Below are positions 4,629-35,670 of a stretch of 64,000 nt of DNA, one piece after another. Below the pieces are notes generated by a model. The model did no database searches and was not told the origin of the DNA. It worked only from the letters and a program-made list of their open reading frames with translations. A program made the translations under genes and the position numbers. How positions within the stretch are numbered: the first letter of the stretch is position 1; the number at the start of each line of letters is the position of its first letter. Source of the DNA: an uncultured delta proteobacterium (GTDB lineage Bacteria; Desulfobacterota; RBG-13-43-22); contig CAWIRY010000115.1 in the NCBI GenBank assembly GCA_963838485.1, positions 2,323 to 66,322 on the forward strand. Reading direction: 5' to 3'.

Positions 4629-4630
4629 CG

Positions 4631-17175: not shown

Positions 17176-18505
17176 TTAAGAGAGGTGTTTTAGTTTCCGC
17201 CAGAGGGTCGTCGGGTGGATACCTAATTCCTGGGCGGCCCGGCCGCGATGGCCCCGATATTTTTCAAGGACTTTTTTAATGATTTCTCCTTCCTGGTCTT
17301 TCAGCCTTTGTCCTGAAGGGCGGGGAGACGGGGGATTCTCCTGAGGTCCCTTTTGAAGCTCGGGAGGCAGATGCCCCAATTGAATAACGGAACCATGGCA
17401 GAGTACAAAGGCATGTTCCAGGATATTTTCCAGTTCCCGGATATTACCGGGATAGGCATAGTTCATTAAGACTTCCAGAACCTTTGGGGATACCTGCGCG
17501 ATTTTTTTTCCGGTTTGAATGTTCAATTTTTGGATGAAGTGTTCGATCAAAAGGGGAAGGTCTTCTCGACGCTCTTTCAGGGTAGGCAGGTCTAATTGCA
17601 GCACCTTCAGTCGGTAATACAAGTACATCCCGAAATCGGACGGTCTCGACTAGGCCTTTCAGGTCTTTGTTGGTGGCTGAGATCAGGCGGGCCTTGACCT
17701 GTTTTGTTACATTCGATCCTAAGGGTTCATAACTTTTCTCCTGTAGCACCCTTAACAACTTGGCCTGTATCGATAAAGGTAAGTCTCCGATTTCATCCAA
17801 GAATAAAGTCCCTCCGTCAGCCAGGGCGAATTTCCCTGGTTTGTCTTTTTTGGCATCGGTAAAGGCCCCCCGCACATAGCCGAAAAGTTCGGATTCCAAG
17901 AGGGTCTCGGGAAGGGCGCTGCAATTAATGGCGATAAAGGGTTTATCTCGGCGAGGGCTTAAATGGTGAATGGCCTTGGCCAGGAGTTCTTTTCCTGAGC
18001 CGCTGGGACCTTGAATCAGGACCGTGCTGTCACTCCGTGCGATATCAGGTAGAAGATTGAAAATTTTTTGGAGAGCATCACTTTTCCCAATGATATCACC
18101 TACATTATATTTTTGTCTGATTTCTTTACGGAGGGCTTCGATGGCCGTCAAGTCCCGAAAAGTCTCCACACCGCCCATTACTTTTCCACGACTGTCTTTT
18201 AAGATAGCCGTGGTTATGCTGATGGGAACGACTTTACCCCGGGCATTCAAGATATTGACCGGCAAATCGACGACATTTTTCCCAACCTTCAAGGTCCGGG
18301 CCAAGGCACAGGCTTCCTGGCAGATGTCGGCCTGAAAGATTTCAAAACATTTCTTGCCGATAGCTTTTTCCCGTGAGAATCCGGTTATGGTTTCGGCCGC
18401 CTGATTGAAGGAGGTAATCACCCGATCATTATTTATGGTAAAGACCCCTTCGGTAATACTATCCAGGATGATTTTTAAAAAGGCAGGGGTGGACTTCATG
18501 ATCAT
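17176..18505 (-). CDS. Sigma-54-dependent Fis-family regulator with a PAS domain. Apparent 1-nt frameshift in a G-run near 17630.
   Basis: ORF 17444..18505 reads ...PAS...VLIQGPSGSGKELLAKAIHHLSPRRDKPFIAINC...ESELFGYVRGAFTDA...LISATNKDLKGLVETVRFRD. ORF 17176..17628 continues YLYYRLKVLQLDLPTLKERREDLPLL...AAQELGIHPTTLWRKLKHL, a Fis-type HTH. Confidence 0.85.
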
Positions 18506-18640: not shown

Positions 18641-19984
18641 ATGTTTTTTAAAATCAGTCTTTATTCAGCCTTGATTGTTTTCGGATTCGGGTCGGGTTAC
18701 AAGGTTTTGAGGTGGTTTCAATGCCGGATCGGCGATCAGGCCAAAGGGATCTCGACCGGGGAACGCTTTTCCCAGGCCCTCAGAGGGGTTTTCTCTACAT
18801 TATTTAGCCGAAAATTGTCTCTCCTGGTCAAGATTTGGGTCCTGGAGGTCCTCTTCCAAAAGCAGATAAGCAGAGAAGGTTTTTCCCGTTGGCTCATGCA
18901 CATTTGTATTGCCTATGGATTTTTGTTCCTGCTCCTGATGCACGCCCTGGACCGTTATGTCAGCCAAAAGTTGTTCAGCGGATACGTTGCCACCCTGAAT
19001 CCTTTTCTCTTTCTAAGAAATTTATTCGGGGCCATCCTGTTGATTGGTCTGAGCATCGCTGGATATCGCCGTCTTTTCAACCGGGTTATGCGGCAGACTA
19101 CCCGGGGCATAGATATTTATGCCCTGGTAGTCCTTTCGCTAATAGTTTTTTCCGGGATTTTTTTGGAAGCCACCAAGATTGTTTCCTACCAACGTTATCA
19201 GGAAATGGTTACGGAAAATTCTTCGATATCCGATGAAGGGGAGGCCAGGGCCTTGAAGGCCTATTGGGCCAAGGAATTTGCCGTCGTCTTCCCCCAGACC
19301 CCTCCTGCGGATTCGATAACCTTAAAAAAGGGTCAAGAACTCCATGTCCTTAATTGCGCTTCCTGCCATTCGAAGCCGAGTTCGGCCTTTTTATCTTATG
19401 GACTGGCCAAAGCGATCGGACCAGCAGCAGCCCTGGTGGTGGGTCAAAGCAGTGTCAGGAACTTCCTGTGGTATTTCCATTTCCTGGTTTGCTTTATCGG
19501 CTTGGCCTTACTTCCCTTTACAAAATTTTTTCATCTTTTGACCAGTCCCCTGGTGCTTCTGATAAACGGGGTGATGGACCGGGCTACGGCCCTGCCGGCC
19601 AATATCGCCACCGTTCAGGCCATCGAACTGGACGCCTGCACCCATTGCGCCACCTGCACACTGCATTGTTCGGTGAGGCCGATCTTTCAGCACATCCCCA
19701 ATCTGACCATTTTGCCCTCGGAAAGATTAGCCGCTTTTAAGTCCATGGTTTTTCAAAAAGAGACCGCTTCCAATGAACTTACCCGTTGCCAGGAAGGGGC
19801 TTCCATTTGTACCAACTGCTTTAATTGCACCCAACGCTGTCCCGTGGGGATAGTGGCCAGGAATTGTGGTTTTGCCTGCGGGATGATCTTCAGCATCTGG
19901 GTTGCCCTGATCTGTTCGTCTCCACCCGTGATAGGCATGTGGCCAGGTTCGATCAAGATAAGACCAAGGTCCTTACTCCTTTGA
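18641..19984 (+). CDS. HdrE/DsrM/NarI-like membrane b-type cytochrome domain fused to a 2x[4Fe-4S] ferredoxin domain.
   Basis: Polytopic N-terminus with conserved His pairs, then CTHCATCTLHCS...CTNCFNCTQRCP. The C-terminal 45 aa are of uncertain reading. Confidence 0.6.
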   Translation: MFFKISLYSALIVFGFGSGYKVLRWFQCRIGDQAKGISTGERFSQALRGVFSTLFSRKLSLLVKIWVLEVLFQKQISREGFSRWLMHICIAYGFLFLLLMHALDRYVSQKLFSGYVATLNPFLFLRNLFGAILLIGLSIAGYRRLFNRVMRQTTRGIDIYALVVLSLIVFSGIFLEATKIVSYQRYQEMVTENSSISDEGEARALKAYWAKEFAVVFPQTPPADSITLKKGQELHVLNCASCHSKPSSAFLSYGLAKAIGPAAALVVGQSSVRNFLWYFHFLVCFIGLALLPFTKFFHLLTSPLVLLINGVMDRATALPANIATVQAIELDACTHCATCTLHCSVRPIFQHIPNLTILPSERLAAFKSMVFQKETASNELTRCQEGASICTNCFNCTQRCPVGIVARNCGFACGMIFSIWVALICSSPPVIGMWPGSIKIRPRSLLL

Positions 19985-20316
19985 GCCTAAAGCGTAAGGC
20001 CTTTAGGAATGATGTCTATCTTTCCTTCCAGGGTAATACCTTTAATAGCTGTTATGAATGCGTGACTTGCACGAACACCTGCCCGGTGGTCGTCAATTAT
20101 AAAAATCCCACGGAGGAACTGGGGTTACTTCCCCATCAAATTATGCACAGTTTGAAATTCGGTTTTCAGGAACATATCCTGGGGCCGGGGATGGTCTGGG
20201 AGTGCCTGGGTTGCTATAATTGTCAGGAAAGCTGCCCTCAGGGGGTTCGGGTAACGGATATCCTTTTTGAACTTAAAAATGAGGCCTTTCAACAGGCCGG
20301 AAATCTCAAGGCTTAA
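19981..20316 (+). CDS. HdrC-like 2x[4Fe-4S] protein. Start assigned to the TTG overlapping the upstream stop (TTGA); uncertain.
   Basis: ...CYECVTCTNTCPV...WECLGCYNCQESCPQG. Confidence 0.5.
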   Translation: MSLKRKAFRNDVYLSFQGNTFNSCYECVTCTNTCPVVVNYKNPTEELGLLPHQIMHSLKFGFQEHILGPGMVWECLGCYNCQESCPQGVRVTDILFELKNEAFQQAGNLKA

Positions 20317-20331
20317 AGAGGTAAATTATCA

Positions 20332-21123
20332 ATGCAAATGATTTTGTTTCCGGGCTGCAAAGTCCCTTACTATGTCCCTTCTTATGAGACCTCCAGTCGA
20401 ATGGTTTTAGAAAAATTCGGGATTGAATTAATGGATGTCGAACTGAACTGTTGTGGATACCCCATCCGTTTTCTGGATTTCAAGGCCTTTATTTTCTCTT
20501 CGGCCCGAAATATCGCCCTGGTCGGCGAAAGAGGCTTGCCTTTGCTGTGCCTTTGTAAGTGTTGCTACGGCACCTTGCGGTATGCGGATTTTCTTTTAAG
20601 AAAAAATGAGGCCCTTTTGAAAGAAGTCAACGAGGTATTAAAAGAAGAAGGACTCCGGTATCCTTCCAGGATAGAAATTAAGCATCTTTTAAGTGTTTTT
20701 TTTGAGGACATTGACCCGACCAATATCTGGAAAAAAAATACCCGACCTTTTCAAAATCTTAAAGTGGCCGCCCATTATGGGTGTCATATCCTGCGCCCCC
20801 GGGATGTGGTGCGATTTGATAACCCCGTTAAGCCCGACAGGTTTGAGACCTTGATAGATGTAACCGGAGCCATCAGTGTGGATTGGTCGCTGAGGACTCA
20901 ATGTTGCGGGGAGCCTTTATGGGGGAAAAATAATACATTGGCCCTGCAACTGACCAAGAAAAAAATAGCCAGCGCTAAACAAGCGGAGGCTGATGTGCTT
21001 TGCGTGGGCTGCACTCATTGTCAAATGCAATTTGAGAGAGTACGGGAAATGACGAGAAATGAAGATGACAAAAATCAGAGTTTACCATCCATCTTTTATC
21101 CCAACTGTTGGGACTCAGCTTAG
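20332..21123 (+). CDS. HdrB-like protein with two CCG domains.
   Basis: 263 aa with NCCGYP...CxxC and QCCGEP...CVGCTHC. Confidence 0.8.
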   Translation: MQMILFPGCKVPYYVPSYETSSRMVLEKFGIELMDVELNCCGYPIRFLDFKAFIFSSARNIALVGERGLPLLCLCKCCYGTLRYADFLLRKNEALLKEVNEVLKEEGLRYPSRIEIKHLLSVFFEDIDPTNIWKKNTRPFQNLKVAAHYGCHILRPRDVVRFDNPVKPDRFETLIDVTGAISVDWSLRTQCCGEPLWGKNNTLALQLTKKKIASAKQAEADVLCVGCTHCQMQFERVREMTRNEDDKNQSLPSIFYPNCWDSA

Positions 21124-21213: not shown

Positions 21214-21504
21214 TTAAGCCGGGCCGATAACCCAGTTCTGGATCAAAGAGAGCGTCAGTACCCGGTAATTTTTAAAGACTTTCCCCAGTTCTTCATACTT
21301 GACCTTGGCCAGGGGCGGATACATCATCAGGATCAGGCCGATGGCGATGGGGAGATTGGTCGTATCATATTGGAAGAGATTCCAGAACTGAACTACCTTG
21401 GGATAGAGATAGCCGGACCCTACACCCACCAGCATGGCCAAAAAGATCCACAGGGTCAGAAAACGGTCCAGAAAGGAAAGTTTTTTAGGAGTCGTTTCGG
21501 GCAT
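21214..21504 (-). pseudogene. 5'-terminal fragment (96 codons) of an ACR3 arsenite efflux gene; truncated duplicate of 34474..35565.
   Basis: [25 protein letters not shown]... is about 95% identical to the N-terminus of the full-length copy. Homology to the second copy ends at about 21222. Confidence 0.75.
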
Positions 21505-21610
21505 AGTGTTTCCCTCCTTTTCAGGTTTTAAGAAGGGCCTCGATTTGTTCCTTTATTAATGATTCCGGCGGAATCTTTGAGAATGGACCATTCTCGGAGA
21601 CATAGAACCG

Positions 21611-21844
21611 TCACCCCAGGCCGGTTTGGGAAAGCTTCCTGGCCGACGGTTCCAAATCGAAGCCATTGATTTTAATGGTCGGAGAGCCGAAAAATTGATT
21701 TGTCCTGGCTTCTTCCTCGGTATTTATTAAAATTGGTTCAATCAGGATGTTGAGCTGTTTTTCATCTAACACTTTTTGAACCGCCTCCAGCGCCTTGTCT
21801 TTGGCCGGTCAACCCCGGGTATAAAGGACCTGAATATTATGCAT
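21611..21844 (-). CDS. Thioredoxin_3 (redox-active disulfide protein 2)-like 77-aa protein with an in-frame TGA in place of the first CxxC Cys (candidate single-Sec protein).
   Basis: MHNIQVLYTRG-[TGA 21809..21811]-PAKDKALEAVQKVLDEKQLNILIEPILINTEEEARTNQFFGSPTIKINGFDLEPSARKLSQTGLG*. It aligns in length and motif with the Cys paralog at 42163..42396 (VLGPGCPKCG...FGVISTPAVVVDG). Confidence 0.5.
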
Positions 21845-21896
21845 AATCTCCCCGTACTAAAAAAGTTTTCCATCTCCCGGATGGCAAGCATCAGGA

Positions 21897-22169
21897 TCAG
21901 CCATCGGCATCAGTGCCGGGTTGGATCTCGAGGGGAGGAAATGGGGTTGAGGATTGAGGGTTTGTAGCCTTCTTTTCTGGAGTGGGCTTAGGGGCAGGGT
22001 TTGGCTTGTCCGAATTCGAAGTCTGCTTATTGTCCTCAGAACATTCCTGCTGTTGCGGATTGGCTGAACCGGGGGGAAGGTTTTTTTTCTCCTCGGCAAA
22101 AGAAAAGGACCCGATTAGAATAATCAGTAAAACCAAAAACAGTATTGTCAATATGTTTCGACCTGTCAT
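21897..22169 (-). CDS. Secreted Pro/Gln-rich low-complexity protein (signal peptide).
   Basis: MTGRNILTILFLVLLIILIGSFSFA-EEKKNLPPGSANPQQQECSEDNK... Confidence 0.45.
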   Translation of the reverse strand: MTGRNILTILFLVLLIILIGSFSFAEEKKNLPPGSANPQQQECSEDNKQTSNSDKPNPAPKPTPEKKATNPQSSTPFPPLEIQPGTDADG

Positions 22170-22879
22170 AGCCTATCTTACCTTTATTCCTTTCCAATGT
22201 TTGTTAAATAAAGGTACTATACCCGGCAGCCTCCAATATTTCAATCAATCTTTGTCTCACCGCAATTCGGAGGGCAAAGAGGGCGATAACGCAAGATGGG
22301 TATTTCGTCTCCATAAAAAGAGAGGGGAGTGAAGAGTTGGGATCGCTGACTCAAGATCAATGTTACCGAGGTTTAGGGGATAACCTGCCATATTGTGATT
22401 GAGTTTGGAAGATTTTTTAAAGCTTTGTCTCAATGGCAGCTCTCAACAGAAAGAGGTTCAGGGTTTTGAACTGTGCCGTTAGCCTATTTATGCTTGACAA
22501 TCCTGCTTGTTATACCATTAAAATTACAAAGAATTTTATGGGGAATGCCCCGACTGAAACCCCATAAGATATTGTGATCCTTCCTCAGCGGCTCCGTTCT
22601 TCATGCGTCAATCCAAAATTGCTTTCAATGCTTTGAATATTTTCATGTTCTTCCTGCGAGCAACTTCGGATTGACGCTTATTCGAAATGTGGGAGAATTG
22701 GTTGGAATATCTCGGCCTTGACCTCTGGATGGCTTTGTTTTTTTTGCTTCGGTCCTCTTTATCTTTGAGCTGGCTCTGAGTTTATCACATTGTCCATTTT
22801 TCGGGGACCACTTTACCTCCGAGCACACCGACTGTTCGATGGAACCATTGACCTCAAGGTTGCCAGGATTGGTGTTCAA

Positions 22880-23512
22880 TCACTTTACAAATGACCGCAT
22901 GCAGGCAATAGCTGGCTGGAAATTTTTAGAAGGAAATGACTCAAATTCATAATAACCTTCTCCCTGGCAGGTCAGGCATGGTGTCCCCTGTTTGACCGGA
23001 TAGGCTTCATAGCAGACCGGGCAAATTTGGATCTCTCCTTTTTTATTTTTTTCGTAATACCGAGTGATTTGAACCGGTGCCGAATTTAACATCCTTCTGC
23101 CGGCTGTCAAAATATCTTGAACCAATACAGATAAGGGAAGCTCTTTTTTATCCACCAGACGCATATACCAATTATAAACCTTAGGAAAGGCGGAAAGCCT
23201 TCTGAGATCCATCCAGACCCTATATCCCTGAAGACTTTTTTTATTGTAAAGACTCAAAGCAAATTTATCCCAATCCAGGATCTTCATCCAGCCGTTGCCA
23301 CAGGTGCAGGGGGTGAAGAGTTGGACCGCATCGGGCAGGCAGTGAATCGTTTCTACTATGGCATCGGCCTCCAGTTCACTACCCAATAATTCCTGTGCCC
23401 AATCGACCATAAAACCGCCAATGACCACACCCGGGGCGGCCCAACCATGAAATTTTTCAATTGTTTTAATAAAATCTTCTAATGTCCTTCCACAAATGGT
23501 TTCTTTTTCCAT
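22880..23512 (-). CDS. FmdE/FwdE-family protein with a C-terminal zinc ribbon.
   Basis: 210 aa, ...HGWAAPGVVIGGFMV...CPVCYE...CLTCQGEG. Confidence 0.65.
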   Translation of the reverse strand: MEKETICGRTLEDFIKTIEKFHGWAAPGVVIGGFMVDWAQELLGSELEADAIVETIHCLPDAVQLFTPCTCGNGWMKILDWDKFALSLYNKKSLQGYRVWMDLRRLSAFPKVYNWYMRLVDKKELPLSVLVQDILTAGRRMLNSAPVQITRYYEKNKKGEIQICPVCYEAYPVKQGTPCLTCQGEGYYEFESFPSKNFQPAIACMRSFVK

Positions 23513-23775
23513 GTCTGCTTTCGATCTGTTTTGATGGTTCGTCGGTGCCTGCTTCAGGCAGGCATGAGCGCTTAGTTCGAAAATAGATTTTAGACCACCC
23601 TTGATCTCTGTAGGGGCCTATGTAGAGGCGGGTTTAAAACCCGCCCCTACGGGAGATTTTCATGTTCCGTGACCATCCTGCCTGTTCGGTTTGTGGGGAG
23701 ACCCGCGTAAGGCCTCAGTGTCCGTGACCAAGAGAAAAAGGGATCACGCTTGGACGGAGACCTTTTACAACCCCG

Positions 23776-26700
23776 TTAAACAGGAACTACGTTCACCCGG
23801 GTATTGGAAAAAGAGGCACTGCCGCCGATTGGGTCGGTCAAGCAGACATCCTTTAACAACGGGTCCACGGCCATGATATGGTTAACACAGATCCCCGTAG
23901 CCCGACGGCGGTCCCCAGAAATTTTGTGGCCATCGACCACCACATCATTGGACCCATAGGCCCAGTGACCGTAGTGCCAGGACACGGCCAGGGTCCCCGG
24001 ACGAATCCCTTCAACGATATTGACCCGTGCGATCATAGGCACCAGCCGGTTTTCTCCGTCTTTCAACTCTAACTTCCCGCTGGGATTGTCCACCGAAACC
24101 AACCGCACTCGTTGGTCCTGTTTAATGCCGATTTTTAAGGCATCTTCCCGATGAATCAGGATCTTGTTCTCCGGCCTCAAGGCGATGTTGCTCCAGTAGT
24201 TGGAGATGGTCCGGGAGTGACCGCCGAAGGCCTCTTTATAGGTGATGATCTTAAACGGATATTCTTGACCCCGCTTTAGGGGTTTACCGGCAGAATCGAA
24301 TTCCCCGCCAATAAATGGGACACCACTGAAATATGTCCCGCTGAGGCTGTTTTTTTGGGAAGCCACTTCCTCCACGAAGAGGTGAAACATGCTATTCAGG
24401 GCACTTTTCATTTTATCGCCCTCATAGGCTTGGCTGAAATCTGCAAACCGCCCCCCGCGGTTGAGGACATAAACGACTTTCCGCCATTCATTCTCTGACC
24501 GCAGGGCTTGCTTCCAACGCTTTTCGTTAAAAACAGAAAGGGGCAGATGTCGTCTGGCCTTTTGAAAGAGGGCCATTTCGGCGGCATCGGCTTCAGGGAC
24601 ATCCTCGCCGCCCTTATCTCCAAAGGCAATATTGGCCACTTCTTTAAGATACCAGTCCTCCGGCCGGGTGAATGGTATCCCCTTACCAAAGGCGTCCTGG
24701 CCGAATCCGGAGAGCTTCATCCGGGTTCCCACGGCAATTAAAAATGTTTCCATGCAGATAGGCATCCGTTCACCGTTCACCTCCACTTCTTCGGTGAAGG
24801 GTATGGCCACGGGTTGTCGTACCTTGCCTACTTTGGTGGGCACATCCGGCGTATCGTGTGGCATTCCCCACCGTTCCAGATAGGTCAGATCCGGGACAAT
24901 GTAGTCTGCATACATGGAGGTCTCGCCGATGACAATATCACTGGCAATGAAGAGCGGTACCCGGGCCGGATCCTTGAGCATGTCAATGATATGTTGGGTC
25001 CCGCCGGGTATAGAAAGGGCCGGAGTGCCCATGTGAAGGAAAAGGATTTTCCCGGCATAGGGATATCCGGCTGTGAAGGAGGGGATGACCTCCTGGTAAA
25101 CATTGCCGGTAAAGGGATACCAGGGCCGCTTGGCCGGGTAGCCATGTTCTTTGAAAAGGGTGAAATCTTCATACCGGCTCTTCTCACGAGTAATCCTAGG
25201 CCCAAAGGCTTTAAGAGGTCCGGAATGCATATTCTCCAATGGATAGATACTGTCTGGTTTATCTCCAACCTCATGCCAAGAGCCGCCCCCCTTACTGAGG
25301 CCCCCTTTATAATCGGCATTGCCGATGAGGACATTTAAAGTAATGATCAGACAACCGTTATAATATCCGTCTGTCTGCTGTACCGGTCCCCGATACATCT
25401 CCACCACAGACCTCTTTCCGTGAGAGGTGAACTCCCTGGCCACTTCGATGATGGTCATGATATCCACTCCGCTTTCTTCGGCATACTCCTTTAACGTGCG
25501 GGCCATGGCCTGTTCGGTCAGGAGTTGAAAGGCGCTCTTCACGGACAGGCCTTTCACCTGGGTCTTGACCAGGAGATCTCCTTCTATCGGTTTATTTTCA
25601 TCTTCCGGATCTACGGCAATCAGCCGGCCTGCGCGGGAGACTACCCTCTGTTTGGCTGTGCCGATGCCCGCTTCATCGGCCTTCAACAAGGCTATGGGGT
25701 GTCCTTCTACGATCTTTACCAAGTGGCTGGCGTTGGTCCAGGTCGGTTCATCGTCGGCCTTGGCAGCCCCCTTGTTGGCGTTTTCCAGGTACCGTTGGTC
25801 ATAACGGTTATTTTCCAGTATCCATCGAATCATGGCCATAGCCAAGGCCCCGTGGCCATTGGGTTGGACTGGAAGCCACCAGTTGGCCTTACCGGCATCG
25901 TTGGAGAGCCGTGCATCCACCACCGCGGTCTTCAGACCCCGGTGAAGTTTTCCGGTGGTGACCTTCTCGGCCATGGTCACCAGGCTGAAGTTGGCTGTAA
26001 AAGCCCCGGTTCCCCAGAAAATAACAAACTCGGCGTTAGCCAGGTCGGGTTTCATGTGGTTAGTTTTATGTCCGGTCATCAGGTCATAGGCGATGTGGTG
26101 AGACTGCTCACAAATAGTGGTATGTTCATAATGATTCTTCGATCCAAGGGATAATTCGGTAAACCATTTCATTAATTGGGCACGGCCTGGTTGAATGCGG
26201 CCAGCCAGGAAGACGAAGCCGTTATTTTTCGGTCCGAGATCCGGATGTTCAGGATCAATAAGCTGATCCAGATGTTCTCGATACTTTTTCTTAAATTCAA
26301 CAACACTCAATTCCCCCTTGCCACACTTCTGGGCATCTTCAGCCATTTTTTTTGATAACTCGACATCCCTCATGGCCACTACCTCGTCAAATCCCGGGTA
26401 TGGGCGGCTGTCTCCTGCCTCGGCGAACAACTTGCCTCCGCGGACGACTTCTTCTATGAATTGGTTAAAAGGGATGCTCTGCCACTTATTGGACCCTCGT
26501 TCGCCGGCTCGTTTAAGTACCTTTCGAATCCGGTAGGGATCGTAATAGGTTTGGATACCGGCCTGCCCCTTGGCGCACAGCTTCCCGTCAATAGTCGCCG
26601 CATCCTGGGGGCGGGTCTTATAAGGAATATGGGGGAGAAAAGTCTGAGGGCTGTAAGGACTCCCCGTCAACTTGGCCAGGGTTCCGTCCCAGATTTTGGC

Positions 26701-26952
26701 CTTGATCTGGCAGGATACATGGCATTGGAGGCAGGTGGTATAAATCTGGTTTTGGGGCTGGGCCAGCTCGTATGCGCCCTGGCTGTCTGCCTCTTTGGTC
26801 TCGGTCAGGCCTCCAAAAATTTTGCTTGCCTGAGCGGCCAGGATGGCACATCCCCCCACAAAGGCTGTTGACTGGATCAATTGACGACGAGTAATTCCTT
26901 TTTGCTCGTTTTTCTTGTTTTCTACAGATCGTTGGTCATGTTTGACGCGCAT
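23776..26952 (-). CDS. ttrA: Molybdopterin (bis-MGD) oxidoreductase catalytic subunit, TtrA-like, with a Tat signal.
   Basis: 1058 aa with TRRQLIQSTAFVGGCAILAA (Tat) and CLQCHVSCQ (an N-terminal [4Fe-4S] motif). The size and the B-C-A gene order match tetrathionate reductase. Confidence 0.65.
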   Translation of the reverse strand: MRVKHDQRSVENKKNEQKGITRRQLIQSTAFVGGCAILAAQASKIFGGLTETKEADSQGAYELAQPQNQIYTTCLQCHVSCQIKAKIWDGTLAKLTGSPYSPQTFLPHIPYKTRPQDAATIDGKLCAKGQAGIQTYYDPYRIRKVLKRAGERGSNKWQSIPFNQFIEEVVRGGKLFAEAGDSRPYPGFDEVVAMRDVELSKKMAEDAQKCGKGELSVVEFKKKYREHLDQLIDPEHPDLGPKNNGFVFLAGRIQPGRAQLMKWFTELSLGSKNHYEHTTICEQSHHIAYDLMTGHKTNHMKPDLANAEFVIFWGTGAFTANFSLVTMAEKVTTGKLHRGLKTAVVDARLSNDAGKANWWLPVQPNGHGALAMAMIRWILENNRYDQRYLENANKGAAKADDEPTWTNASHLVKIVEGHPIALLKADEAGIGTAKQRVVSRAGRLIAVDPEDENKPIEGDLLVKTQVKGLSVKSAFQLLTEQAMARTLKEYAEESGVDIMTIIEVAREFTSHGKRSVVEMYRGPVQQTDGYYNGCLIITLNVLIGNADYKGGLSKGGGSWHEVGDKPDSIYPLENMHSGPLKAFGPRITREKSRYEDFTLFKEHGYPAKRPWYPFTGNVYQEVIPSFTAGYPYAGKILFLHMGTPALSIPGGTQHIIDMLKDPARVPLFIASDIVIGETSMYADYIVPDLTYLERWGMPHDTPDVPTKVGKVRQPVAIPFTEEVEVNGERMPICMETFLIAVGTRMKLSGFGQDAFGKGIPFTRPEDWYLKEVANIAFGDKGGEDVPEADAAEMALFQKARRHLPLSVFNEKRWKQALRSENEWRKVVYVLNRGGRFADFSQAYEGDKMKSALNSMFHLFVEEVASQKNSLSGTYFSGVPFIGGEFDSAGKPLKRGQEYPFKIITYKEAFGGHSRTISNYWSNIALRPENKILIHREDALKIGIKQDQRVRLVSVDNPSGKLELKDGENRLVPMIARVNIVEGIRPGTLAVSWHYGHWAYGSNDVVVDGHKISGDRRRATGICVNHIMAVDPLLKDVCLTDPIGGSASFSNTRVNVVPV

Positions 26953-26955
26953 GGG

Positions 26956-28107
26956 TTAATTTCCTCCCTCATTGACAGATTTTGTTGAAAGGATTGGCAG
27001 AAACCGGATGCCCAGATAAAAGAGGGCGATAAATAGGGCCACAGCGAAGGCAAAGACCGACCATTCATGGATCGATGGGAAGTATACGAACTTGAGCCGG
27101 TTATCCGAATAGGCCTCCTGAAGTCCCTTCATGGCCGGGGTTACTTGGCCAGGGATCACCTGGTTCAGGCGAACCGCGAAGTGGGCCACGGCAATCAGCA
27201 GGCCAGCCCATCCGGCATTCAGACGGTTTGCTGGCTTCCGTATCAGCATCACCAATGGAATGATGATTCCGGCCAGAAGGTGAACGATCCAAAAGACGTA
27301 CCAATAGGAACCGAAGAGGATGGACCAGAGCACCGTATAGGTTCTATCCCTTCCATACCACATGGTTACCGAAAATTCCGACCACTCCAGAATGATTACC
27401 AGGAAGAGCAGGCCTACGACTGACCGACTCAAGAGGGATAGGGTCTCCCGGTCCTTGGAAGAATCCGTGAAACAGAAAAAGGCTGCGACAGCTAAGATCA
27501 AGGCAAGGCCGGAAGACAAACCATCGCCAATAGAGAGGACCGGGCCGAGGGAGGTGTGCCAATAGGGACTGGATATCAGGGTGGCGAATTCAGCACCGTT
27601 GCCGCCGGAGAAGATGATGGCCAGGCCCATACCGATCCAGCCGAGGCGGCGGTAGGTCTTGGTTGCTAAGGGATAGGGTTTTATTTCCATGGCCAGGATT
27701 ATGGCGATATAGGCCAAGTAGCCCATCGAAATCCAACTGGAGATGGTCAACAGGGAGAAAAAGTTGGGCCGAAAAAAGACCTCCTGCAGTCGCCACATAT
27801 GCCCCAGGTCGAAGGAGATGATCGTAAGCCCAACCACCAGGTTGACCAGGGACAGCCACAGGGCGGGACGTACCAGGCCACGGAATCGCTCAATTTGAAA
27901 GGCATAACAAACCCAGGCAAAAAAGGAAACCCCCTCTGCCAGGCCGATAAAATAGATTTTTGCGGAAACCCATAATCCCCAGGGGACGTAGCTGCCGTAA
28001 TCGGCGAGCAGATGACCATATATCATCCGCTGCATTACACCGAAAAGGCCCCAGATCATCAGGGCGACCCAGGCAATACCGATGACTTTTTTTTGCGTTT
28101 TTGTCAT
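26956..28107 (-). CDS. ttrC: NrfD/PsrC-family membrane anchor (TtrC-like).
   Basis: 383 aa, polytopic, lying between the Fe-S and catalytic subunit genes. Confidence 0.65.
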   Translation of the reverse strand: MTKTQKKVIGIAWVALMIWGLFGVMQRMIYGHLLADYGSYVPWGLWVSAKIYFIGLAEGVSFFAWVCYAFQIERFRGLVRPALWLSLVNLVVGLTIISFDLGHMWRLQEVFFRPNFFSLLTISSWISMGYLAYIAIILAMEIKPYPLATKTYRRLGWIGMGLAIIFSGGNGAEFATLISSPYWHTSLGPVLSIGDGLSSGLALILAVAAFFCFTDSSKDRETLSLLSRSVVGLLFLVIILEWSEFSVTMWYGRDRTYTVLWSILFGSYWYVFWIVHLLAGIIIPLVMLIRKPANRLNAGWAGLLIAVAHFAVRLNQVIPGQVTPAMKGLQEAYSDNRLKFVYFPSIHEWSVFAFAVALFIALFYLGIRFLPILSTKSVNEGGN

Positions 28108-28119
28108 AAAATTTCTCCT

Positions 28120-29094
28120 TTAAACCAGGTAATAAACAGAAGGGTTCGTTCCTAATTCCTCTTTTAGTCGGGTGACCCGTGAAGAACCTATAAGCTCATG
28201 GGCCAGGCTGTGAAGGTCATGGTAATCCCCGAAATAGGTGGCCCCACCCACACAGGTCGTAACGCAGGCAGGGAGCATGCCCTCACGGAGCCGATGGAGA
28301 CAGAAATGGCACTTCCGGGCGTTTCCGATGGGGGAGCGTTCCCGGTGGGGATCCCGCCGCCACTTTTTGCTGTACTCGAAGTTAGGCCGGGTTTCATAAT
28401 TCATAATCGCCGGGGTAGAGCCCCCATAAAATTCTCCGAAATCCGCTGTGCGTGCGTTGTACGGACAGGCCGCCACGCAGTTGCGGCAACCGATACAAAT
28501 TTCATAATCTATGACCACGACCCCATCTTCTCTCTTCCAGGTCGCCCTGACCGGGCAGACCGGCACACAGGGCGGTTTGTCACATTGCATGCAAGGTCTG
28601 GGGGTGAAGATCCTTCGTACATCCGGGAACTGCCCTACTTCCTGTTCGGGCACGACCCGGTAAACCACGCCCGGGGGTAGATTATTCTCCGTACAGCAGG
28701 ATACGGTGCAGGCCTTACAGCCGATACATTTCTGCTGATCAATCACCATCACCCATTTGCGTTCCCGGACGGGCTTTTTCATGGCTTTCAAAAGTTCTGC
28801 CCGCATCCGTTCCAGGGTGCTGCCCTCGGCAAAGCTTTCCGGATGGTTCAGCGGTTTGGCCTCAGGGGCGGTTTCCAGGGCCAAGGCAGACTTGGCTGTC
28901 AATGACCCCAAAATCCCCATACCACTGATAGCCGCCAGTGAACGGCCAATAAAATTCCGGCGTTCCAAGTCAGCCCCCGTCGCCTCCGCAGTAGATTTTG
29001 TCTGGCGCTGCCTGGAATCTTGGTCCCCTTTCCCCTGGGCGGATCCTTTCTGGGGGCTGGGATTGGATCGATTGGATGAAAACTTTTCGGTCAT
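28120..29094 (-). CDS. ttrB: Four-cluster [4Fe-4S] electron-transfer subunit (TtrB-like) with a Tat signal.
   Basis: 324 aa with [16 protein letters not shown] and multiple CxxCxxCxxxCP motifs. Confidence 0.65.
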
Positions 29095-29251: not shown

Positions 29252-30223
29252 TCAGCTTTCCGTTTGATTTAGATAAATATGATCCGGATGATTGAGGATC
29301 ACTTTGGTGTCCGGCGGAACGCTCGACGTAATCCAGACGTTGCCTCCGATGGTCGTTCTGGCCCCAATAACGGTCTCACCTCCTAAGATAGTGGCATTGG
29401 CATAAATAATCACGTCATCCTCAATGGTTGGATGGCGCTTCTTGTCACGATAAAGATTGCCGGCATTCTGGGGCAGAGAGAGAGCCCCCAGGGTTACTCC
29501 TTGATAGATCCGCACCCGGTTCCCAATCACCGTGGTTTCACCGATGACCACGCCGGTTCCATGGTCGATAAAAAAATACTCTCCGATCTGGGCACCGGGA
29601 TGAATATCGATTCCCGTCCTGCTATGGGCGTATTCAGTCATCATTCGGGGAAGTAAAGGGATGCCCATCCCATGTAACGTATGGGCGATCCGGTAAACGG
29701 TTATGGCAAAAAGTCCCGGATAGCTGACAATAATTTCCGTGTGACTTTTGGCTGCCGGGTCTCCCTCAAAGGCGGCCTGGATATCTTTGATCAGCAGATT
29801 TTTTGTGTTTGGAAGGCTTTGTAGGAACTCGGCGGCTTTTTCATACCCTCGATCGAGGTGAAAGCTGCAAGGCCAATCAAGTTGGTTGCATTCGTGGGGA
29901 AAAGACAAACGGATTTGCTTGACTAATATCTTGTAAAGGGTCTGAATTCCCAAGGCCAGGTTATTTTCTCGCTGATCAGGATTCAAAACTTGATCGCCCA
30001 AATTTCCAGGGAATAGTATTCGTCTGATTTGATCCACCAGTTGGATGACTTCTTCCGGATTGGGTGAGGAAACACTGTCATTGTCCCTTTCCGAGGAAAT
30101 GGGTTCGGACCCATTAAGTAATTCCAAGGCCAGTGAATGGCAAACATCTGAGATGGATTGAGATTGGTAAAACCTTTTCGGGGACGGGTGTGTGGCCAGG
30201 GTTCTCATGCCGATCATCCTCAA
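29252..30223 (-). CDS. cysE: Serine O-acetyltransferase.
   Basis: SATase N-terminal domain plus hexapeptide repeats FFIDHGTGVVIGETTVIGNRVRIYQGVTLG. Confidence 0.8.
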   Translation of the reverse strand: MRMIGMRTLATHPSPKRFYQSQSISDVCHSLALELLNGSEPISSERDNDSVSSPNPEEVIQLVDQIRRILFPGNLGDQVLNPDQRENNLALGIQTLYKILVKQIRLSFPHECNQLDWPCSFHLDRGYEKAAEFLQSLPNTKNLLIKDIQAAFEGDPAAKSHTEIIVSYPGLFAITVYRIAHTLHGMGIPLLPRMMTEYAHSRTGIDIHPGAQIGEYFFIDHGTGVVIGETTVIGNRVRIYQGVTLGALSLPQNAGNLYRDKKRHPTIEDDVIIYANATILGGETVIGARTTIGGNVWITSSVPPDTKVILNHPDHIYLNQTES

Positions 30224-30846
30224 CGTTTTATTTGAAAAATTCCATAGGTTGCCCGAAAATTGGGTAGATGGTTGATCATCTTACCTCTTTTATCCTGATC
30301 CTGGGTATTGATGGCCGTCCATTTAACAATCTCAAAGCCGACTTCCCCTGAAAATCGTTTAAAATCCTTGATGGTGATGACCCGGATATTCGGGGTGTCG
30401 TACCATTGATAAGGAAGCTGGGGGGTGACCGGTGCATAGCCTCTAAACATCAACTGCATTCGTATCCGCCAGTGACTGAAATTCGGAAAACTGACGATCC
30501 CGTTGTGTCCGATGCGCAGTATCGACCGGATCAATTGATCCGGTTCATAAACCAGTTGAAGCGTCTGGCTCAAGACTACATAGTCGAAACTCTTATCCGG
30601 AAAGTCTTCTATCTCTTCATTCAGATCCCCTTGCAGAACGGAAAGTCCCCTTTCGATGCAGCGGGCGGTCTTGGACTCATTCTTTTCGATGCCCTTACCC
30701 TCAATATTCTTTTGGGTCTTCAGGTACAAGAGAAGATCCCCTTCCCCGCAGCCGAGATCCAGTACCCTGGCCCCCGGTTCGATCCAGGAAGCCACCAACT
30801 GCAGGTCAAAACGAATCCCATTATTTTTAAAGTTCACGATAGACAC
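30220..30846 (-). CDS. metW: Methionine biosynthesis protein MetW.
   Basis: 208 aa with VLDLGCGEGDLL, adjacent to metX. Confidence 0.75.
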   Translation of the reverse strand: MSIVNFKNNGIRFDLQLVASWIEPGARVLDLGCGEGDLLLYLKTQKNIEGKGIEKNESKTARCIERGLSVLQGDLNEEIEDFPDKSFDYVVLSQTLQLVYEPDQLIRSILRIGHNGIVSFPNFSHWRIRMQLMFRGYAPVTPQLPYQWYDTPNIRVITIKDFKRFSGEVGFEIVKWTAINTQDQDKRGKMINHLPNFRATYGIFQIKR

Positions 30847-31993
30847 GATCCAAAAATCCCCTGATCATTTCACTTAATTTTTCATTGGGAAGCAGGAAGG
30901 CGTCATGTCCCCATTGGGCTTCGATTTCACAGAAGCTGACATCCTTACCATTTTTTTTTAAGGCCCGTGCAATGGCCTTGGATTGGTAAGTGGGGTACAA
31001 CCAATCAGAGGTAAAGGAGACCACCAGAAATTTGGTCCGAGTTTTAGAAAAGGACTGTACCGCAGATCCGTTGCCGTGTTGGAGACCCAGATCAAAATAA
31101 TCGGCGGCCTTGGTGATATATAAGAAAGAGTTGGCATCGAACCGTTCGACGAATTTTGTGCCCTGATACCTTAAATAGCTTTCCACTTGAAAATCAGCCT
31201 CAAAGTTATAAGAGAAATCATTCTTATCCTGGAGTCGGCGACCGAATTTCTGGCGCATGGATTCATCGGAAAGGTAGGTGATATGCCCGATCATACGGGC
31301 CACTGCCAGGCCTAAGGAAGGGCCAGTCCCCGAGTAGTAATCGCCGCCGTTCCAGTTGGGATCTGCCATGATGGCCTGCCGGGCCACCTCATTGAAGGCA
31401 ATGGCCAGGGCCGAATGTTTAGTGGTCGTCGCCAGGGGGATGGCGGAAATAATCATCTCGGGAAAGAGAACGGACCATTCCAACACCTGCATCCCACCGA
31501 TGGATCCCCCGATAACCGAGAGGATCTTTTTAATACCCAGATGATCCAGCAATTGCCTTTGGGCCAAGACCATGTCCCCAATGGTTACCACCGGAAAGTT
31601 CAAGCCATAAGGTTTATCACTCTTGGGGTTAATAGAAGAAGGCCCGGTTGATCCCAGACAGCTTCCCAGGATATTGGAACAGATGACAAAATATTTATCG
31701 GTATCGATTCCCTTTCCCGGCCCGACCATAATATCCCACCAGCCCGGCTTGTTGTCCTCCTGGGAATAATAGCCGGCCACGTGGGAATCCCCGGATAAGG
31801 CATGTAATATGAGGACAGTATTGTCCTTCTCCCTGTTTAATGTCCCATAGGTTTCATAAGCCAGGGTCAACGGTCCCAGGCGGGTCCCGCATTCCAGAAC
31901 CATCTCATCGGGAGGTTCGGCGAAGGTGAAATATTTTTTTTCCACCACTCCCACGGAGATCCCTTTGGGGTCATTTTCAATATATTCGCTCAA
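30827..31993 (-). CDS. metX: Homoserine O-acetyltransferase. Start tentatively the TTG at 31993, overlapping the metY stop as TTGA.
   Basis: ...VLILHALSGDSHVAGY...GGSIGGMQVLEW... (alpha/beta hydrolase, GxSxG). Confidence 0.75.
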   Translation of the reverse strand: MSEYIENDPKGISVGVVEKKYFTFAEPPDEMVLECGTRLGPLTLAYETYGTLNREKDNTVLILHALSGDSHVAGYYSQEDNKPGWWDIMVGPGKGIDTDKYFVICSNILGSCLGSTGPSSINPKSDKPYGLNFPVVTIGDMVLAQRQLLDHLGIKKILSVIGGSIGGMQVLEWSVLFPEMIISAIPLATTTKHSALAIAFNEVARQAIMADPNWNGGDYYSGTGPSLGLAVARMIGHITYLSDESMRQKFGRRLQDKNDFSYNFEADFQVESYLRYQGTKFVERFDANSFLYITKAADYFDLGLQHGNGSAVQSFSKTRTKFLVVSFTSDWLYPTYQSKAIARALKKNGKDVSFCEIEAQWGHDAFLLPNEKLSEMIRGFLDRVYREL

Positions 31994-33254
31994 TGGGGGA
32001 GTCCCTCTAAAGCCTGTCCCAGGTCCTCGCAAAGATCCTCGGCATCCTCAATCCCTACGGAAAGGCGGATCATATCGGGTCTAATCCCCAAGCTCTGCCG
32101 GGTTTCTTCATCAAAAGAAATATACTGGGAGGAGTATGGGTGAATCACCAGGGTCTTGCAGTCCCCTAAATTGGCCAGGTGATAGATTAAACGAAGCCGT
32201 TTGATAAATTTAAAACAGGCCCCCTGGTCCTTGAGGCCGAAGGTAATCAAACCGCCAAATCCTTTCCCCTTAAACTGGGTCTCCGCCGTAAGGTGGGAGG
32301 GATGGTCTTTGAATCCGGGGTAATTGACCCAAACAACCTCGGGTCTTCCTTTTAAGTATTCGGCGATCAAGGCGGTATTTTTTAAAGTCTCTTTCATCCG
32401 AAGCGACAGGGTGTCCAAACCGAGCATGGTCAAAAAGGAATGAAAGGGGGACTGGGTAGTTCCGAAATTGATATGGTGTTCCCTCCATACCTTATCCAGG
32501 AAGGCCAAAGGCCCCTTGCGGTCGATAAAGGGTTTAAAGTCCGGGAAGCGGTCTTCGGACCAGGGGAAGGTGCCCTTATCGATTACCACACCCCCGACGG
32601 CTGCCCCGTGACCACTTAGATATTTGGTAGTGGAATGAATAACTATATCGGCACCGAACTCAAAAGGACGGCACAAGGTAGGGCGAGGTCAGGGTGTTGT
32701 CCACGACCAGGGGGATCCCCTGACGATGGGCAACATCGGAAATTTTTTTGAGGTTCGGGATATCCAGCTTGGGGTTGCCGATAGTTTCCAGGTAGACAAA
32801 CCGTGTCTGGTTATTGATGGCTTTGGCAATGGCCTCAATGTCAGTGGACTCCACCAGCCGAGCCTGGATACCATATTTCTTAAACACCTTATTAAAAAGG
32901 AGGTACGTGGACATGAAGAGGGAATTCCCGGAAACAAATTCATTCCCCGTCCTGAGCAACGCCATACAGGCATTGGTAACGGCCGGCCATGCCTGATGAC
33001 ATGACGATGGCGCCCTGCCCTCCTTCTAATAGGGTTAGTTTCTCTTCCAAAGTGCGGTTGGTGGGATTGGTTAACCTCATGTAGATATGATCGGCGGTCT
33101 GCCCGGCAAAAGTCTGACTTAAACTTTCCGCAGTCGGATGAAGGTGTGAAGCGGTCTGGAAGATCGGGGACAGGGTCGACCCCTCCCAGGATTCCGGCGA
33201 TTGTCCGGCGTGGATGACTTGGGTGTCAAAATGATATGGGGTTTCGCTTACCAT
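31990..33254 (-). CDS. metY: O-acetylhomoserine sulfhydrylase (PLP-dependent, MetY-like), split over three frames by two 1-nt indels at about 32960 and 32670.
   Basis: Segments ...QVIHAGQSPE...SSGMAG / ...LLRTGNEFVSGNSLF...IPLVVDNTLTSPYL / ...GADIVIHSTTKYLSGHG... Ordered together they give a complete MetY. Confidence 0.7.
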
Positions 33255-33291: not shown

Positions 33292-33696
33292 TTAGAATTC
33301 CAAAATAGGTTTAAAGACTTGGCATTTTTTACAGATTTCAATCTTGTCGCTCCAATTTTTATGGACTTCACCTTCACAGATGGTCCCGTTTATAAACCAG
33401 CAGAGGAGGCCGGCTTTATATTTCCAAGCCGGACATTGCTTTTTTCTATCGGGAGGGCATTTTTTAATAGTCCAGCAGGGTTTAGAACTTAAGGCTAATT
33501 TCTTTTGTCCCGAAATCAAGAAAAGGATCTGTCGTTCCATGTTGTCTGGAATGTTGCGCCAGCCTTGTTCATAGCTGTGAACGGCCTTAATCGAAGTCAT
33601 CAGAAGTTGGGCCAATTCCTTCTGTGTCAGCCCTAACTGTTTTCGGTAAAAAGCAAATTTTTTACTGTCCATTTTTCCCTCGATAGAGGCATCCAT
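33292..33696 (-). CDS. XRE-family HTH regulator fused to a C-terminal Cys-rich (8 Cys) domain.
   Basis: LTQKELAQLLMTSIKAVHSYEQG (HTH_3), then CWTIKKCPP...CPAWKYKAGLLCWFINGTICEGEV...CKKCQVF. Confidence 0.55.
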   Translation of the reverse strand: MDASIEGKMDSKKFAFYRKQLGLTQKELAQLLMTSIKAVHSYEQGWRNIPDNMERQILFLISGQKKLALSSKPCWTIKKCPPDRKKQCPAWKYKAGLLCWFINGTICEGEVHKNWSDKIEICKKCQVFKPILEF

Positions 33697-35565: not shown

Positions 35566-35670
35566 TTGTCCTCCTTCCTTGTCAGGTGTTAAGAAGAGCC
35601 TTGATTTGTTCTCTGATTAATGATTTCGGTGGAATTTTTGAGAATGAACCATTCTCGGAAATGTAATAGC

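Follow-up and report, generated by a model that had tools for sequence, protein, structure and literature searches.

The tetrathionate reductases TtrBCA of Salmonella enterica and Shewanella sp. ANA-3 are encoded in the gene order B-C-A, carry twin-arginine translocation (Tat) signals on A and B, use an NrfD-type anchor, and have A subunits of about 1020-1060 amino acids (aa). The selenate reductase SrdBCA of Bacillus selenatarsenatis SF-1 (SrdA, BAJ83594) also has the B-C-A order, and its A subunit is Tat-exported, contains a Cys-ligated molybdenum-bis-pyranopterin guanine dinucleotide cofactor (Mo-bisPGD), and has a Gly-Arg motif. ArrAB(C) of Shewanella sp. ANA-3 (PDB 6CZ7) is likewise a periplasmic, Cys-ligated Mo-bisPGD oxyanion reductase, with the gene order A-B and a smaller A subunit. 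Ttr-like enzymes have, in addition, been proposed or shown to be As(V) reductases in Pyrobaculum, Anaeromyxobacter sp. PSR-1, Melioribacter and Limisphaera, and ttrA-like transcripts outnumber those of arrA in paddy soils (PMC5492636, PMC13608581, PMC11462812, PMC12949373). Here we describe a four-gene locus of an uncultured delta proteobacterium (Desulfobacterota), found in a window of 64,000 nucleotides (positions 2,323 to 66,322 of contig CAWIRY010000115.1, assembly GCA_963838485.1; coordinates below count from the first nucleotide of the window). Our preferred reading, to which we give a probability of roughly 0.42, is that its product is a quinol-dependent oxyanion reductase of three subunits, which faces the periplasm and belongs to the Ttr/Srd/'alternative Arr' lineage of complex iron-sulfur molybdoenzymes, with arsenate as the most likely substrate.

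Four intact genes, for the B, C and A subunits and an FmdE-family protein, lie co-oriented on the minus strand (Table 1). Open reading frames (ORFs), RR motifs and Pfam matches agree with what had been read from the letters without database searches (the sequence-only reading): an iron-sulfur subunit, an NrfD-like anchor and a 1058-aa Tat-targeted subunit for bis-molybdopterin guanine dinucleotide stand in that order, and an FmdE-like gene, placed about 260 nt downstream, follows after a measured gap of 263 nt. Both A and B carry Tat signals; that of A is ITRRQLIQSTAFVGG (ITRRQLIQ), and that of B, which has a long N-terminal extension, has its RR motif at about residues 45-46. A holds Mo-bisPGD and one N-terminal 4Fe-4S cluster, FS0, with cysteines C74, C77, C81 and C126. 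Its putative Mo ligand is C281, in EHTTICEQSHHIAY, which aligns with Cys173 of PsrA and Cys193 of ArrA. B is a four-cluster protein, and the NrfD-type C subunit has about 9-10 hydrophobic segments. The homology of A is far beyond chance, because its best relative is 94% identical and hundreds of others match at 55-73% with E = 0. A structure search with A matched just PsrA and ArrA, both weakly, and gave no solved Ttr or Srd structure. A cofactor-less protein of the kind of ActB of alternative complex III or of QrcB (QrcB score 52 bits) was ruled out by the invariant FS0 cysteines and Mo-ligand cysteine. By analogy with the family, C would oxidise menaquinol, and electrons would pass from C to B and then by way of FS0 to the molybdenum centre, where an oxyanion would be reduced in the periplasm. 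If this oxyanion is arsenate, the resulting arsenite would be handled by the products of the adjacent Acr3, ArsC, ArsR and ArsP genes.

We compared the enzyme with tetrathionate reductase. Among the curated NCBIfam families TtrA matched A best, but at 505 bits against a cut-off of 1750; PhsA gave 158 bits and ArrA 88, against 1600. B scored 176 bits with TtrB (cut-off 416), 171 with DsrO and 150 with ArrB, and C had no match to NCBIfam TtrC and no BLASTP match to enterobacterial TtrC at E<=1e-5, which leaves A, B and C under all three Ttr equivalog cut-offs. A is 30% identical to TtrA of Salmonella, 27% to that of Shewanella sp. ANA-3, and 29.7-31% to the products of plasmid-borne ttrA genes flanked by ttrSR; over the TtrA proteins of Salmonella, Citrobacter and Shewanella sp. 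ANA-3 the range is 27-31%. No ttrSR-like pair is adjacent in the window, as the sequence-only reading had noted, and about 10 kb around the locus contained no histidine kinase, LuxR-type TtrR or PhnD-like sensor. The main tree was a neighbour-joining (NJ) tree of 340 N-terminal columns with 100 bootstraps and a Psr/Phs/Sre outgroup, and its reference N-termini, 399 aa each, were taken from Data Set S1B of PMC7327174. The TtrA clade received 98-99% bootstrap support with the window A outside it, and a full-length NJ tree, which leaves out the truncated references, separated them too.

The active site points the same way. The ligand region reads HGAYCGLAYR in TtrA and HTTICEQSHH in the window A, which also has a Gly-Arg motif (G251-R252) where true TtrA has none. 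Homologues from Azospirillum and Pseudomonas resemble true TtrA in lacking Gly-Arg and in having HGAYCG... around the ligand. The distribution of the pair in our alignment agrees with the report that it is kept in Arr, Arx and Ttr-like arsenate reductases and is missing from bona fide Ttr at the position of ArrA R165, which served as our active-site criterion for TtrA (PMC12949373). On these sequence features, the window enzyme is not a bona fide tetrathionate reductase. The label 'TtrBCA-like' given earlier thus holds for the layout (B-C-A order, Tat signals on A and B, NrfD anchor, TtrA as best curated family) and fails for membership, on clade, score and motif. The sequence-only reading had been cautious about the substrate, with reason, and had left the Ttr assignment to the phylogeny and active-site residues of the catalytic subunit; the former now puts A outside the TtrA clade, and the latter are AGRI and EHTTICEQSHH, not HGAYCG...YR.

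The characterised enzyme with the highest identity to A is SrdA, which alone represented Srd in our comparison and is comparable over its N-terminal 399 aa only. Over this region A is 45% identical to SrdA and 47% to a Methanoperedens homologue, and SrdA shares 55-56% identity with other proteins of the window's clade. A, SrdA and their relatives form a joint clade with 77% bootstrap support and have in common a clade-specific insertion, RD..L.K.MA.DA...EFK.K...LD.LIDP.HPDLGPKNN. Within it, the window enzyme is a member of a large and highly conserved sister group to SrdA, which the sequences set apart by an active-site pattern of its own, AGRI...EHTT[IV]CEQSHH. Two segments of A, AGRI..GR (holding G251-R252) and EHTT[IV]CEQSHHIA, are invariant in this group, as defined on an alignment of 25 sequences. 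The group is already known from phylogenies, where it is labelled variously TtrA or SrdA.

The similarity to SrdA raises the alternative of a respiratory selenate reductase acting like SrdBCA of B. selenatarsenatis. The shared gene order, the insertion, the joint clade and an identity well above the 27-30% to TtrA favour it, as does the annotation of SrdA-clustering Methanoperedens proteins as putative SrdA (PMC7327174). We nevertheless hold it to be improbable. The ligand segment of SrdA, IEKTTLCGQTSNKAW (EKTTLCGQTSN), differs at five positions from the clade-invariant EHTTICEQSHHIA (EHTTICEQSHH), and the SrdA pattern was found in 0 of 386 collected relatives, whereas CEQSHH was present in 150. 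SrdA therefore looks like a derived offshoot whose substrate is not simply transferable to the clade, and the window locus differs from srdBCA in having fmdE and ars genes as partners. Selenate is, moreover, too scarce to account for a clade in more than 370 species, and we found no selenium-specific context. A Limisphaera strain with a Srd/Ttr-like complex respires arsenate and not selenate (PMC13608581), and the AioX-type proteins that have been tested did not bind selenate (PMC5908839).

The extent of the clade was estimated by searches with A. A single-sequence search gave 1512 matches among the scored candidates and a profile search 3375. We found relatives in 371 species-level genomes, with 49-94% identity for the top 80; they belong to Desulfobacterota, Planctomycetota, Gemmatimonadota, Acidobacteriota, Chloroflexota, Bacteroidota, Nitrospirota, Ignavibacteriota, Myxococcota, Firmicutes and other phyla. 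Nearly all carriers are metagenome-assembled genomes (MAGs), one of them assigned to Thermosulfurimonas dismutans; the cultured ones are Neomoorella carbonis, Moorella humiferrea, Deferrisoma camini and Geothermobacter hydrogeniphilus. The named members of ten 50%-identity clusters came from Methanoperedens and Bathyarchaeia only. A more distant B-C-A enzyme (37% identical, with the GR motif and EHTNICELSHH) is encoded at 7112-12507 of the Citrobacter arsenatis plasmid NZ_CP037863.1 (locus L007). Together with a NarJ/TorD-like gene, enzymes of this type lie inside an arsRDABC/ArsC/phosphatase island on conjugative IncF-type plasmids of Citrobacter, Escherichia coli, Salmonella and Enterobacter. 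In the plasmid annotation, A is called only 'molybdopterin-dependent oxidoreductase' and B 'DsrO'.

We then considered arsenate. HMMER alignment with ArrA of Shewanella sp. ANA-3 matched G251-R252 of A to G164-R165, H277-T278 to H189-S190, and C281 to C193. These likenesses at the active site contrast with an overall identity of 20%, and Arr and Arx form a separate lineage with 100% bootstrap support. The window enzyme also resembles the Ttr-like 'alternative' arsenate reductases of Pyrobaculum aerophilum and P. arsenaticum and of Anaeromyxobacter sp. PSR-1, and the candidates from Melioribacter roseus, Geobacter sp. OR-1 and Limisphaera, in lineage, architecture, the Gly-Arg pair and the ars genes alongside. 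In Melioribacter, a module of PhnD-like protein, kinase and regulator lies upstream of the enzyme genes, an arrangement that most relatives of the window enzyme have too (PMC5492636, PMC12949373, PMC13608581). The Gly-Arg pair expected of a Ttr-like arsenate reductase is present, and Acr3, ArsC, ArsR and ArsP are encoded within 5-18 kb. Arsenate is favoured mainly because of the gene neighbours, AioX-type sensors and Acr3/ars genes, which were compared by matching the stop-to-stop ORFs of 83 non-redundant related loci to the proteins of the window and its relatives and by clustering all neighbours.

The B-C-A order was universal among these loci, with the B gene directly upstream of C-A in 73. 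A PhnD-like periplasmic binding protein was encoded in 37 loci, and where at least 6 kb of upstream DNA was available (54 loci), it lay upstream of B with a kinase or sigma-54 activator in 35; 50 loci had either a HAMP/sigma-54 activator or a kinase with an NtrC-type regulator. The binding protein shares 37.5-37.9% identity (E = 7e-42) with AioX, an arsenite sensor characterised by experiment, of NT-26, Agrobacterium and Sinorhizobium and is about equally similar to PhnD, with no significant similarity to the periplasmic sensor domain of TtrS. In the AioX/ArxX/ArrX subfamily, the pocket consists of Y88, C106, Y131, S161, S163, H192 and D210, of which C106 and D210 set it apart from PhnD, and the ligand of each sensor is the substrate of its cognate molybdoenzyme (PMC5908839). 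The full pocket, with S or T at position 163, is kept in 33-34 of the 37 binding proteins (e.g. L002 1581-2549 and L062 4624-5574); those of L052, L055 and L057 have PhnD-like Gly/Lys instead. The relatives therefore resemble the AioXSR, ArxXSR and ArrXSR systems in sensor pocket, in overall identity and in a partner that is mostly a sigma-54 activator, and their ligand specificity is predicted from the pocket residues. They differ in that the Desulfobacterota members use one HAMP/sigma-54 activator fusion (738 aa) with a small receiver-like protein, not a kinase and a regulator.

Sensors resembling the arsenite-binding AioX would also suit an enzyme running in the reverse direction, as an Arx-like anaerobic arsenite oxidase feeding the quinone pool. 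Arr- and Arx-type enzymes are closely related and reversible in vitro, which counts for this alternative. So does the make-up of the partner regulators, most of which are, like AioR and ArxR, sigma-54 AAA+ activators and not FixJ/CitB-type regulators such as ArrR (PMC5908839). However, arsenite oxidation would be uphill to menaquinone (+139 mV for As(V)/As(III) versus -74 mV; PMC13490349), the window of this Desulfobacterota MAG has no evident system for a high-potential acceptor, the regulator at the Moorella locus is of the NarL/FixJ type, like ArrR, and the published Ttr-like cases are reductases. We regard an oxidase as very improbable.

Arsenic genes recur in the same neighbourhoods. Acr3-like transporters are encoded in 14 loci, and in 7 related loci Acr3 and a PF04060 Fe-S protein form a pair by the enzyme genes. 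Within 1.06 Mb of flanking sequence, a true Acr3, defined as at least 55% identical to that of the window, lies within 10 kb in 10 of the 83 loci; these come from Desulfobacterota, Gemmatimonadota, Phycisphaerae, Tectomicrobia and others and represent about eight independent lineages. If a genome of 4-6 Mb has one or two acr3 genes, chance would give well under one, and the enrichment is about 30-fold. In all four genomes of the window's 91-94% group, ars genes stand directly upstream. The arsenic-rich neighbourhood pointed out in the sequence-only reading therefore recurs across phyla and is the strongest clue to the substrate, whereas the cysE-met link mentioned with it is confined to a few Desulfobacterota. 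That reading had placed the locus between arsenic genes and a cysE-metWXY block. Both are present, but the cysE-met block sits between the enzyme and the main ars genes, and the sole arsenic gene on the fmdE side is a truncated Acr3 copy (21214-21504). The locus of Moorella was rejected as an arsenic island, because its genes for a Cd/Zn P-type ATPase, a cation diffusion facilitator (CDF) transporter and ArsR/SmtB regulators mark it as an island for resistance to metals in general.

The sensor module and the rhodanese described below are missing from the window and its three closest relatives. In L001, L012 and L025, the 91-94% relatives, the place of the module just upstream of B is taken by a gene for an XRE-type helix-turn-helix regulator with a Cys-rich 'two-CW' domain, which the window also encodes. 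This protein is a candidate local regulator and may be a redox or metalloid sensor.

Two further neighbours bear on the substrate. Directly after A or before B, 28 of the 83 loci encode a periplasmic rhodanese-domain protein (e.g. L002 11280-11840, L029 13117-13743, L067 7254-7991 and L091 13218-13739) with a signal or lipoprotein peptide, a normal catalytic loop, an acidic tail and a conserved extreme C-terminus, ...D[MFY]GC or, in some, PSC; those of Chloroflexota have a TPR-like N-domain in addition. The cysteine, placed on a flexible acidic tail, points to a carrier of sulfane sulfur (or selenium) rather than to a function with arsenate. The arm is reminiscent of sulfur-carrier proteins, and we know of no description of it. 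The srrD-F genes presumably encode rhodaneses as well. They are named in PMC12949373, and the association of rhodanese genes with the selenite reductase operon srr too speaks for the selenate alternative discussed above. Beside the enzyme genes in 17 loci, we found a signal-peptide beta-barrel protein ending in ...KF and weakly similar to phosphate-selective porin O/P (e.g. L012 13436-14752, L035 12940-14160 and L085 3723-5177); L006 has two clear Porin_O_P genes at 3059-5501. These neighbours suggest a dedicated outer-membrane entry for an anionic substrate, and the same pairing of porin and enzyme exists in Dissulfuribacter thermophilus (PMC13490349).

The rhodanese is one argument for a sulfur-compound reductase acting on thiosulfate, sulfite, polysulfide or persulfide, or on tetrathionate by a non-canonical enzyme. 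The rhodanese of the relatives would present sulfane sulfur, possibly on its C-terminal Cys, to the Mo site, and the sulfide formed could feed CysE, MetX and MetY. This fits a type III sulfide:quinone oxidoreductase (SQR) gene nearby in L002, the co-oriented cysE-metWXY genes just upstream of the enzyme genes in the window, met genes by the cluster in L001, L002 and L024, TtrA as the best curated family match, and the presence of Thermosulfurimonas dismutans in the clade. Ttr-type BCA enzymes are also strongly induced, by proteomics, in thiosulfate disproportionation by Desulfolithobacter, and a Dissulfuribacter homologue with an OprO/P-like porin, similar to that of our 17 loci, is more abundant on sulfite/H2 (PMC9751629, PMC13490349). 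Set against this, the sensors are AioX-like and not TtrS-like, a sulfur substrate would leave the Acr3 enrichment unexplained, genes for rhodanese, SQR and porin are all missing from the window, the features of bona fide Ttr are absent, and the met/cys linkage has the narrow distribution given above. The Desulfolithobacter enzyme is reported to cluster with authentic Ttr and may not represent the clade (PMC12949373), and menaquinol-driven reduction of thiosulfate or sulfite is thermodynamically unfavourable (PMC13490349). Overall, we judge a sulfur substrate unlikely, less so than selenate. The rhodanese would make sense with an arsenic enzyme if the substrate in sulfidic habitats were thioarsenate, monothioarsenate being structurally analogous to thiosulfate.

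Several observations weigh against the assignment to arsenate. The Gly-Arg pair does not specify arsenate, because SrdA and most non-Ttr branches also have it, and the nearest characterised homologue, SrdA, reduces selenate. ArrA Lys198 and Tyr210, which we take to participate in arsenate binding, are replaced by H286 and H299 in the window A, and the pocket is not Arr-like in detail. The Pyrobaculum/Aeropyrum enzymes (PAE1265 type) fall in a separate clade, with 29% identity and RHTSACQLG. Of the Ttr-like arsenate reductases, the trees covered this type, and the proteins of Anaeromyxobacter PSR-1 (WP_059435911.1), Geobacter OR-1, Melioribacter and Limisphaera may or may not belong to the clade of the window enzyme. 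In the window, the AioX-like sensor gives way to the Cys-rich XRE regulator; among the relatives, the rhodanese fits sulfur or selenium chemistry better, and the Moorella island is not one for arsenic. The clade has members in sulfur disproportionators, where Ttr-type enzymes accompanied by an OprO/P-like porin are abundant even when no arsenic is supplied (PMC9751629, PMC13490349). An arsenate role for the clade as a whole would have its basis in sequence and context.

The FmdE protein was identified by its FmdE N-domain (PF02663; 104.3 bits, gathering threshold 22.9) and its zf-Tbcl_FmdE domain (PF23475; 52.5 bits, 23.2). The C-terminus, described as a zinc ribbon in the sequence-only reading, is a treble-clef zinc finger instead. 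Residues 5-187 match PDB 3D00, the dimeric 'FwdE' of Syntrophus aciditrophicus (E = 1e-48). The protein resembles the FmdE/FwdE family (PDB 3D00, 2GVI, 2GLZ) in its alpha+beta N-domain followed by the zinc finger and in having its gene beside that of a Mo/W-bisPGD enzyme, as in fmd/fwd operons; it differs in its partner, which here is a Tat-exported respiratory reductase and not the cytoplasmic formylmethanofuran dehydrogenase. To our knowledge, no FmdE has an established biochemical function, and our literature search found no paper joining FmdE with tetrathionate reductase. FmdE is also encoded in operons of another Mo/W-bisPGD enzyme, and some members are fused to a molybdopterin-binding PF00994 domain (PMC2954224). 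We found fmdE in 16 related loci. Where the downstream DNA extends for at least 3 kb (53 loci), it follows A in 15, and in 9 of these 15 it is itself followed by a MoeA-like PF00994 gene, after which MoaA and MoaC/MoaB/MOSC genes sometimes stand. Elsewhere, the gene after A encodes a TorD-family chaperone, in haloarchaeal relatives, or a weakly NarJ/TorD-like protein, on the Citrobacter plasmid. By analogy, FmdE is most likely a cytoplasmic cofactor-insertion or proofreading factor for A that acts before Tat export, a location assigned because it has no signal peptide, and it would fill the role of the TorD/NarJ/ArrD-type chaperones of related operons.

The gap between A and fmdE folds at -87.5 kcal/mol (z = -2.4) and contains a GC-rich hairpin (Table 1), which the terminator scan did not call. 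Its sequence is not conserved in the 94% relative, where a different inverted repeat occupies the same place. Because of this hairpin, fmdE may be expressed below the level of B-C-A. The promoter and terminator scan of 21-36 kb was uninformative, with counts no higher than in shuffled sequence.

The remaining genes of the neighbourhood are listed in Table 1. The cysE gene also stands directly before B in the relative L025. The metWXY genes lie downstream of fmdE in L001 and L002, and the 94% relative has its met genes on the other side of the enzyme genes. A direct repeat of 1041 bp (91.8% identical, by repeat search and blastn) brackets the block from fmdE to Acr3 and also duplicates a small upstream ORF and the hairpin CCATCCGGGAGATGG; it may have been left behind by a rearrangement or a partial duplication. 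The closest relatives (91-94%) are MAGs of 'uncultured delta proteobacterium'. Several genes are split, namely metY (31990-33254) into three pieces and those for a PAS/sigma-54 activator (17176-18505), a DsrK/HdrD-like protein (18641-20316) and a ParA/NifX-like protein (14267-15557) into two each. Their counterparts are intact in L001, and this suggests either frameshift errors of long-read assembly or real pseudogenes.

On the plus strand at 18641-21123 there are genes for DsrM/DsrK- or HdrD-like membrane Fe-S/CCG-domain proteins, beside the PAS/sigma-54 activator (17444-18505). These travel together in L001 and are probably a unit separate from the molybdoenzyme genes. Control of the operon by this activator was considered and dropped, given its company in L001 and the lack of a sigma-54 -24/-12 element upstream of B in the window; such matches as the search gave were at chance level. 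Further out, 9594-16869 is densely packed with genes for Nitro_FeMo-Co (NifX/NifB-like) proteins, for ParA/Mrp-type ATPases that have ferredoxin inserts, for DUF5320 and for a fusion of CDF transporter and Nitro_FeMo-Co. A sigma-54-like -24/-12 match lies at this cluster (16895-16910), whose genes follow the locus in L001.

Table 1. Coordinates of the enzyme genes and of neighbouring features in the 64,000-nt window
Feature	Position	Strand	Basis and remarks
FmdE-family protein	22880-23512	-	210 aa; Pfam FmdE 104 bits, zf-Tbcl_FmdE 52 bits
GC-rich hairpin GUAGGGGCGGGUUUUAAACCCGCCUCUAC	23622-23650	-	In the 263-nt A-fmdE gap; no U-tract after it
A subunit, predicted Tat-exported Mo/W-bisPGD catalytic subunit	23776-26952	-	1058 aa; Pfam Molybdop_Fe4S4, Molybdopterin, Molydop_binding
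C subunit, predicted NrfD/PsrC-type integral membrane quinol-oxidising anchor	26956-28107	-	383 aa; Pfam NrfD 93 bits
B subunit, SrdB/TtrB-like four-cluster ferredoxin-like electron-transfer protein	28120-29094	-	324 aa; Pfam Fer4_11 76 bits and other Fer4 models; predicted Tat-exported
Serine O-acetyltransferase (CysE/EpsC-type)	29252-30223	-	157 nt upstream of B; NCBIfam cysE 163 bits, EpsC 153 (cut-off 150)
metW	30220-30846	-	Pfam MetW 228 bits
metX	30827-32032	-	Abhydrolase_1
metY, three ORFs	31990-32676, 32660-32965, 32940-33254	-	Cys_Met_Meta_PP profile positions 1-91, 85-182, 182-381
XRE-type regulator with Cys-rich C-terminal 'two-CW' domain (CW...C...C..W...CW...C...C..C)	33292-33696	-	Pfam HTH_3; NCBIfam two_CW_domain 54 bits
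PF04060 Fe-S protein after Acr3	33881-34405	-	Pfam FeS
Acr3 arsenite efflux pump	34474-35565	-	NCBIfam acr3 equivalog 462 bits (cut-off 283)
ArsC, low-molecular-weight-phosphatase type	38380-38817	+	Pfam LMWPc
Major facilitator superfamily (MFS) transporter, DsbD/thioredoxin pair, CDF transporter	within 38380-44864		Pfam MFS_1, DsbD_TM, Thioredoxin, Cation_efflux
ArsR	43404-43739	-	Pfam HTH_5
ArsP permease	43788-44864	-	Pfam ArsP_1
Direct repeat, copy 1	21221-22259		Holds truncated Acr3 N-terminus 21214-21504 (96 aa; Pfam SBF positions 1-42)
Direct repeat, copy 2	35282-36321		5' part of intact Acr3 gene and its upstream region

The clade to which the window enzyme belongs is strongly conserved across many phyla of soils and sediments, and its genes are routinely annotated as 'tetrathionate reductase' or 'anaerobic selenocysteine-containing dehydrogenase', which leads to wrong sulfur-cycle inferences in MAG studies. 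The locus also gives FmdE, a structurally solved family without an established function, a testable role in the maturation of a Tat-exported molybdoenzyme. We put forward, tentatively and as a doubtful proposition at present, that the CEQSHH sister clade of SrdA is a major overlooked family of periplasmic arsenic-oxyanion reductases, comprising thousands of proteins from more than 370 species and more than 15 phyla at 50-70% mutual identity, with its own kit of AioX-type sensors, OprO/P-like porins, rhodanese with a C-terminal Cys arm, and FmdE and MoeA-like maturation proteins. The size and conservation of the clade, its AioX-type sensors and its accessory genes make the question of the substrate directly testable. 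If these enzymes are arsenic reductases, surveys based on arrA would greatly underestimate microbial arsenic mobilisation. If the clade reduces arsenate, to which its sensors and neighbours point, it would mobilise arsenic in flooded soils and aquifers by an important route that has largely gone uncounted, in agreement with the excess of ttrA-like over arrA transcripts in paddy soils.

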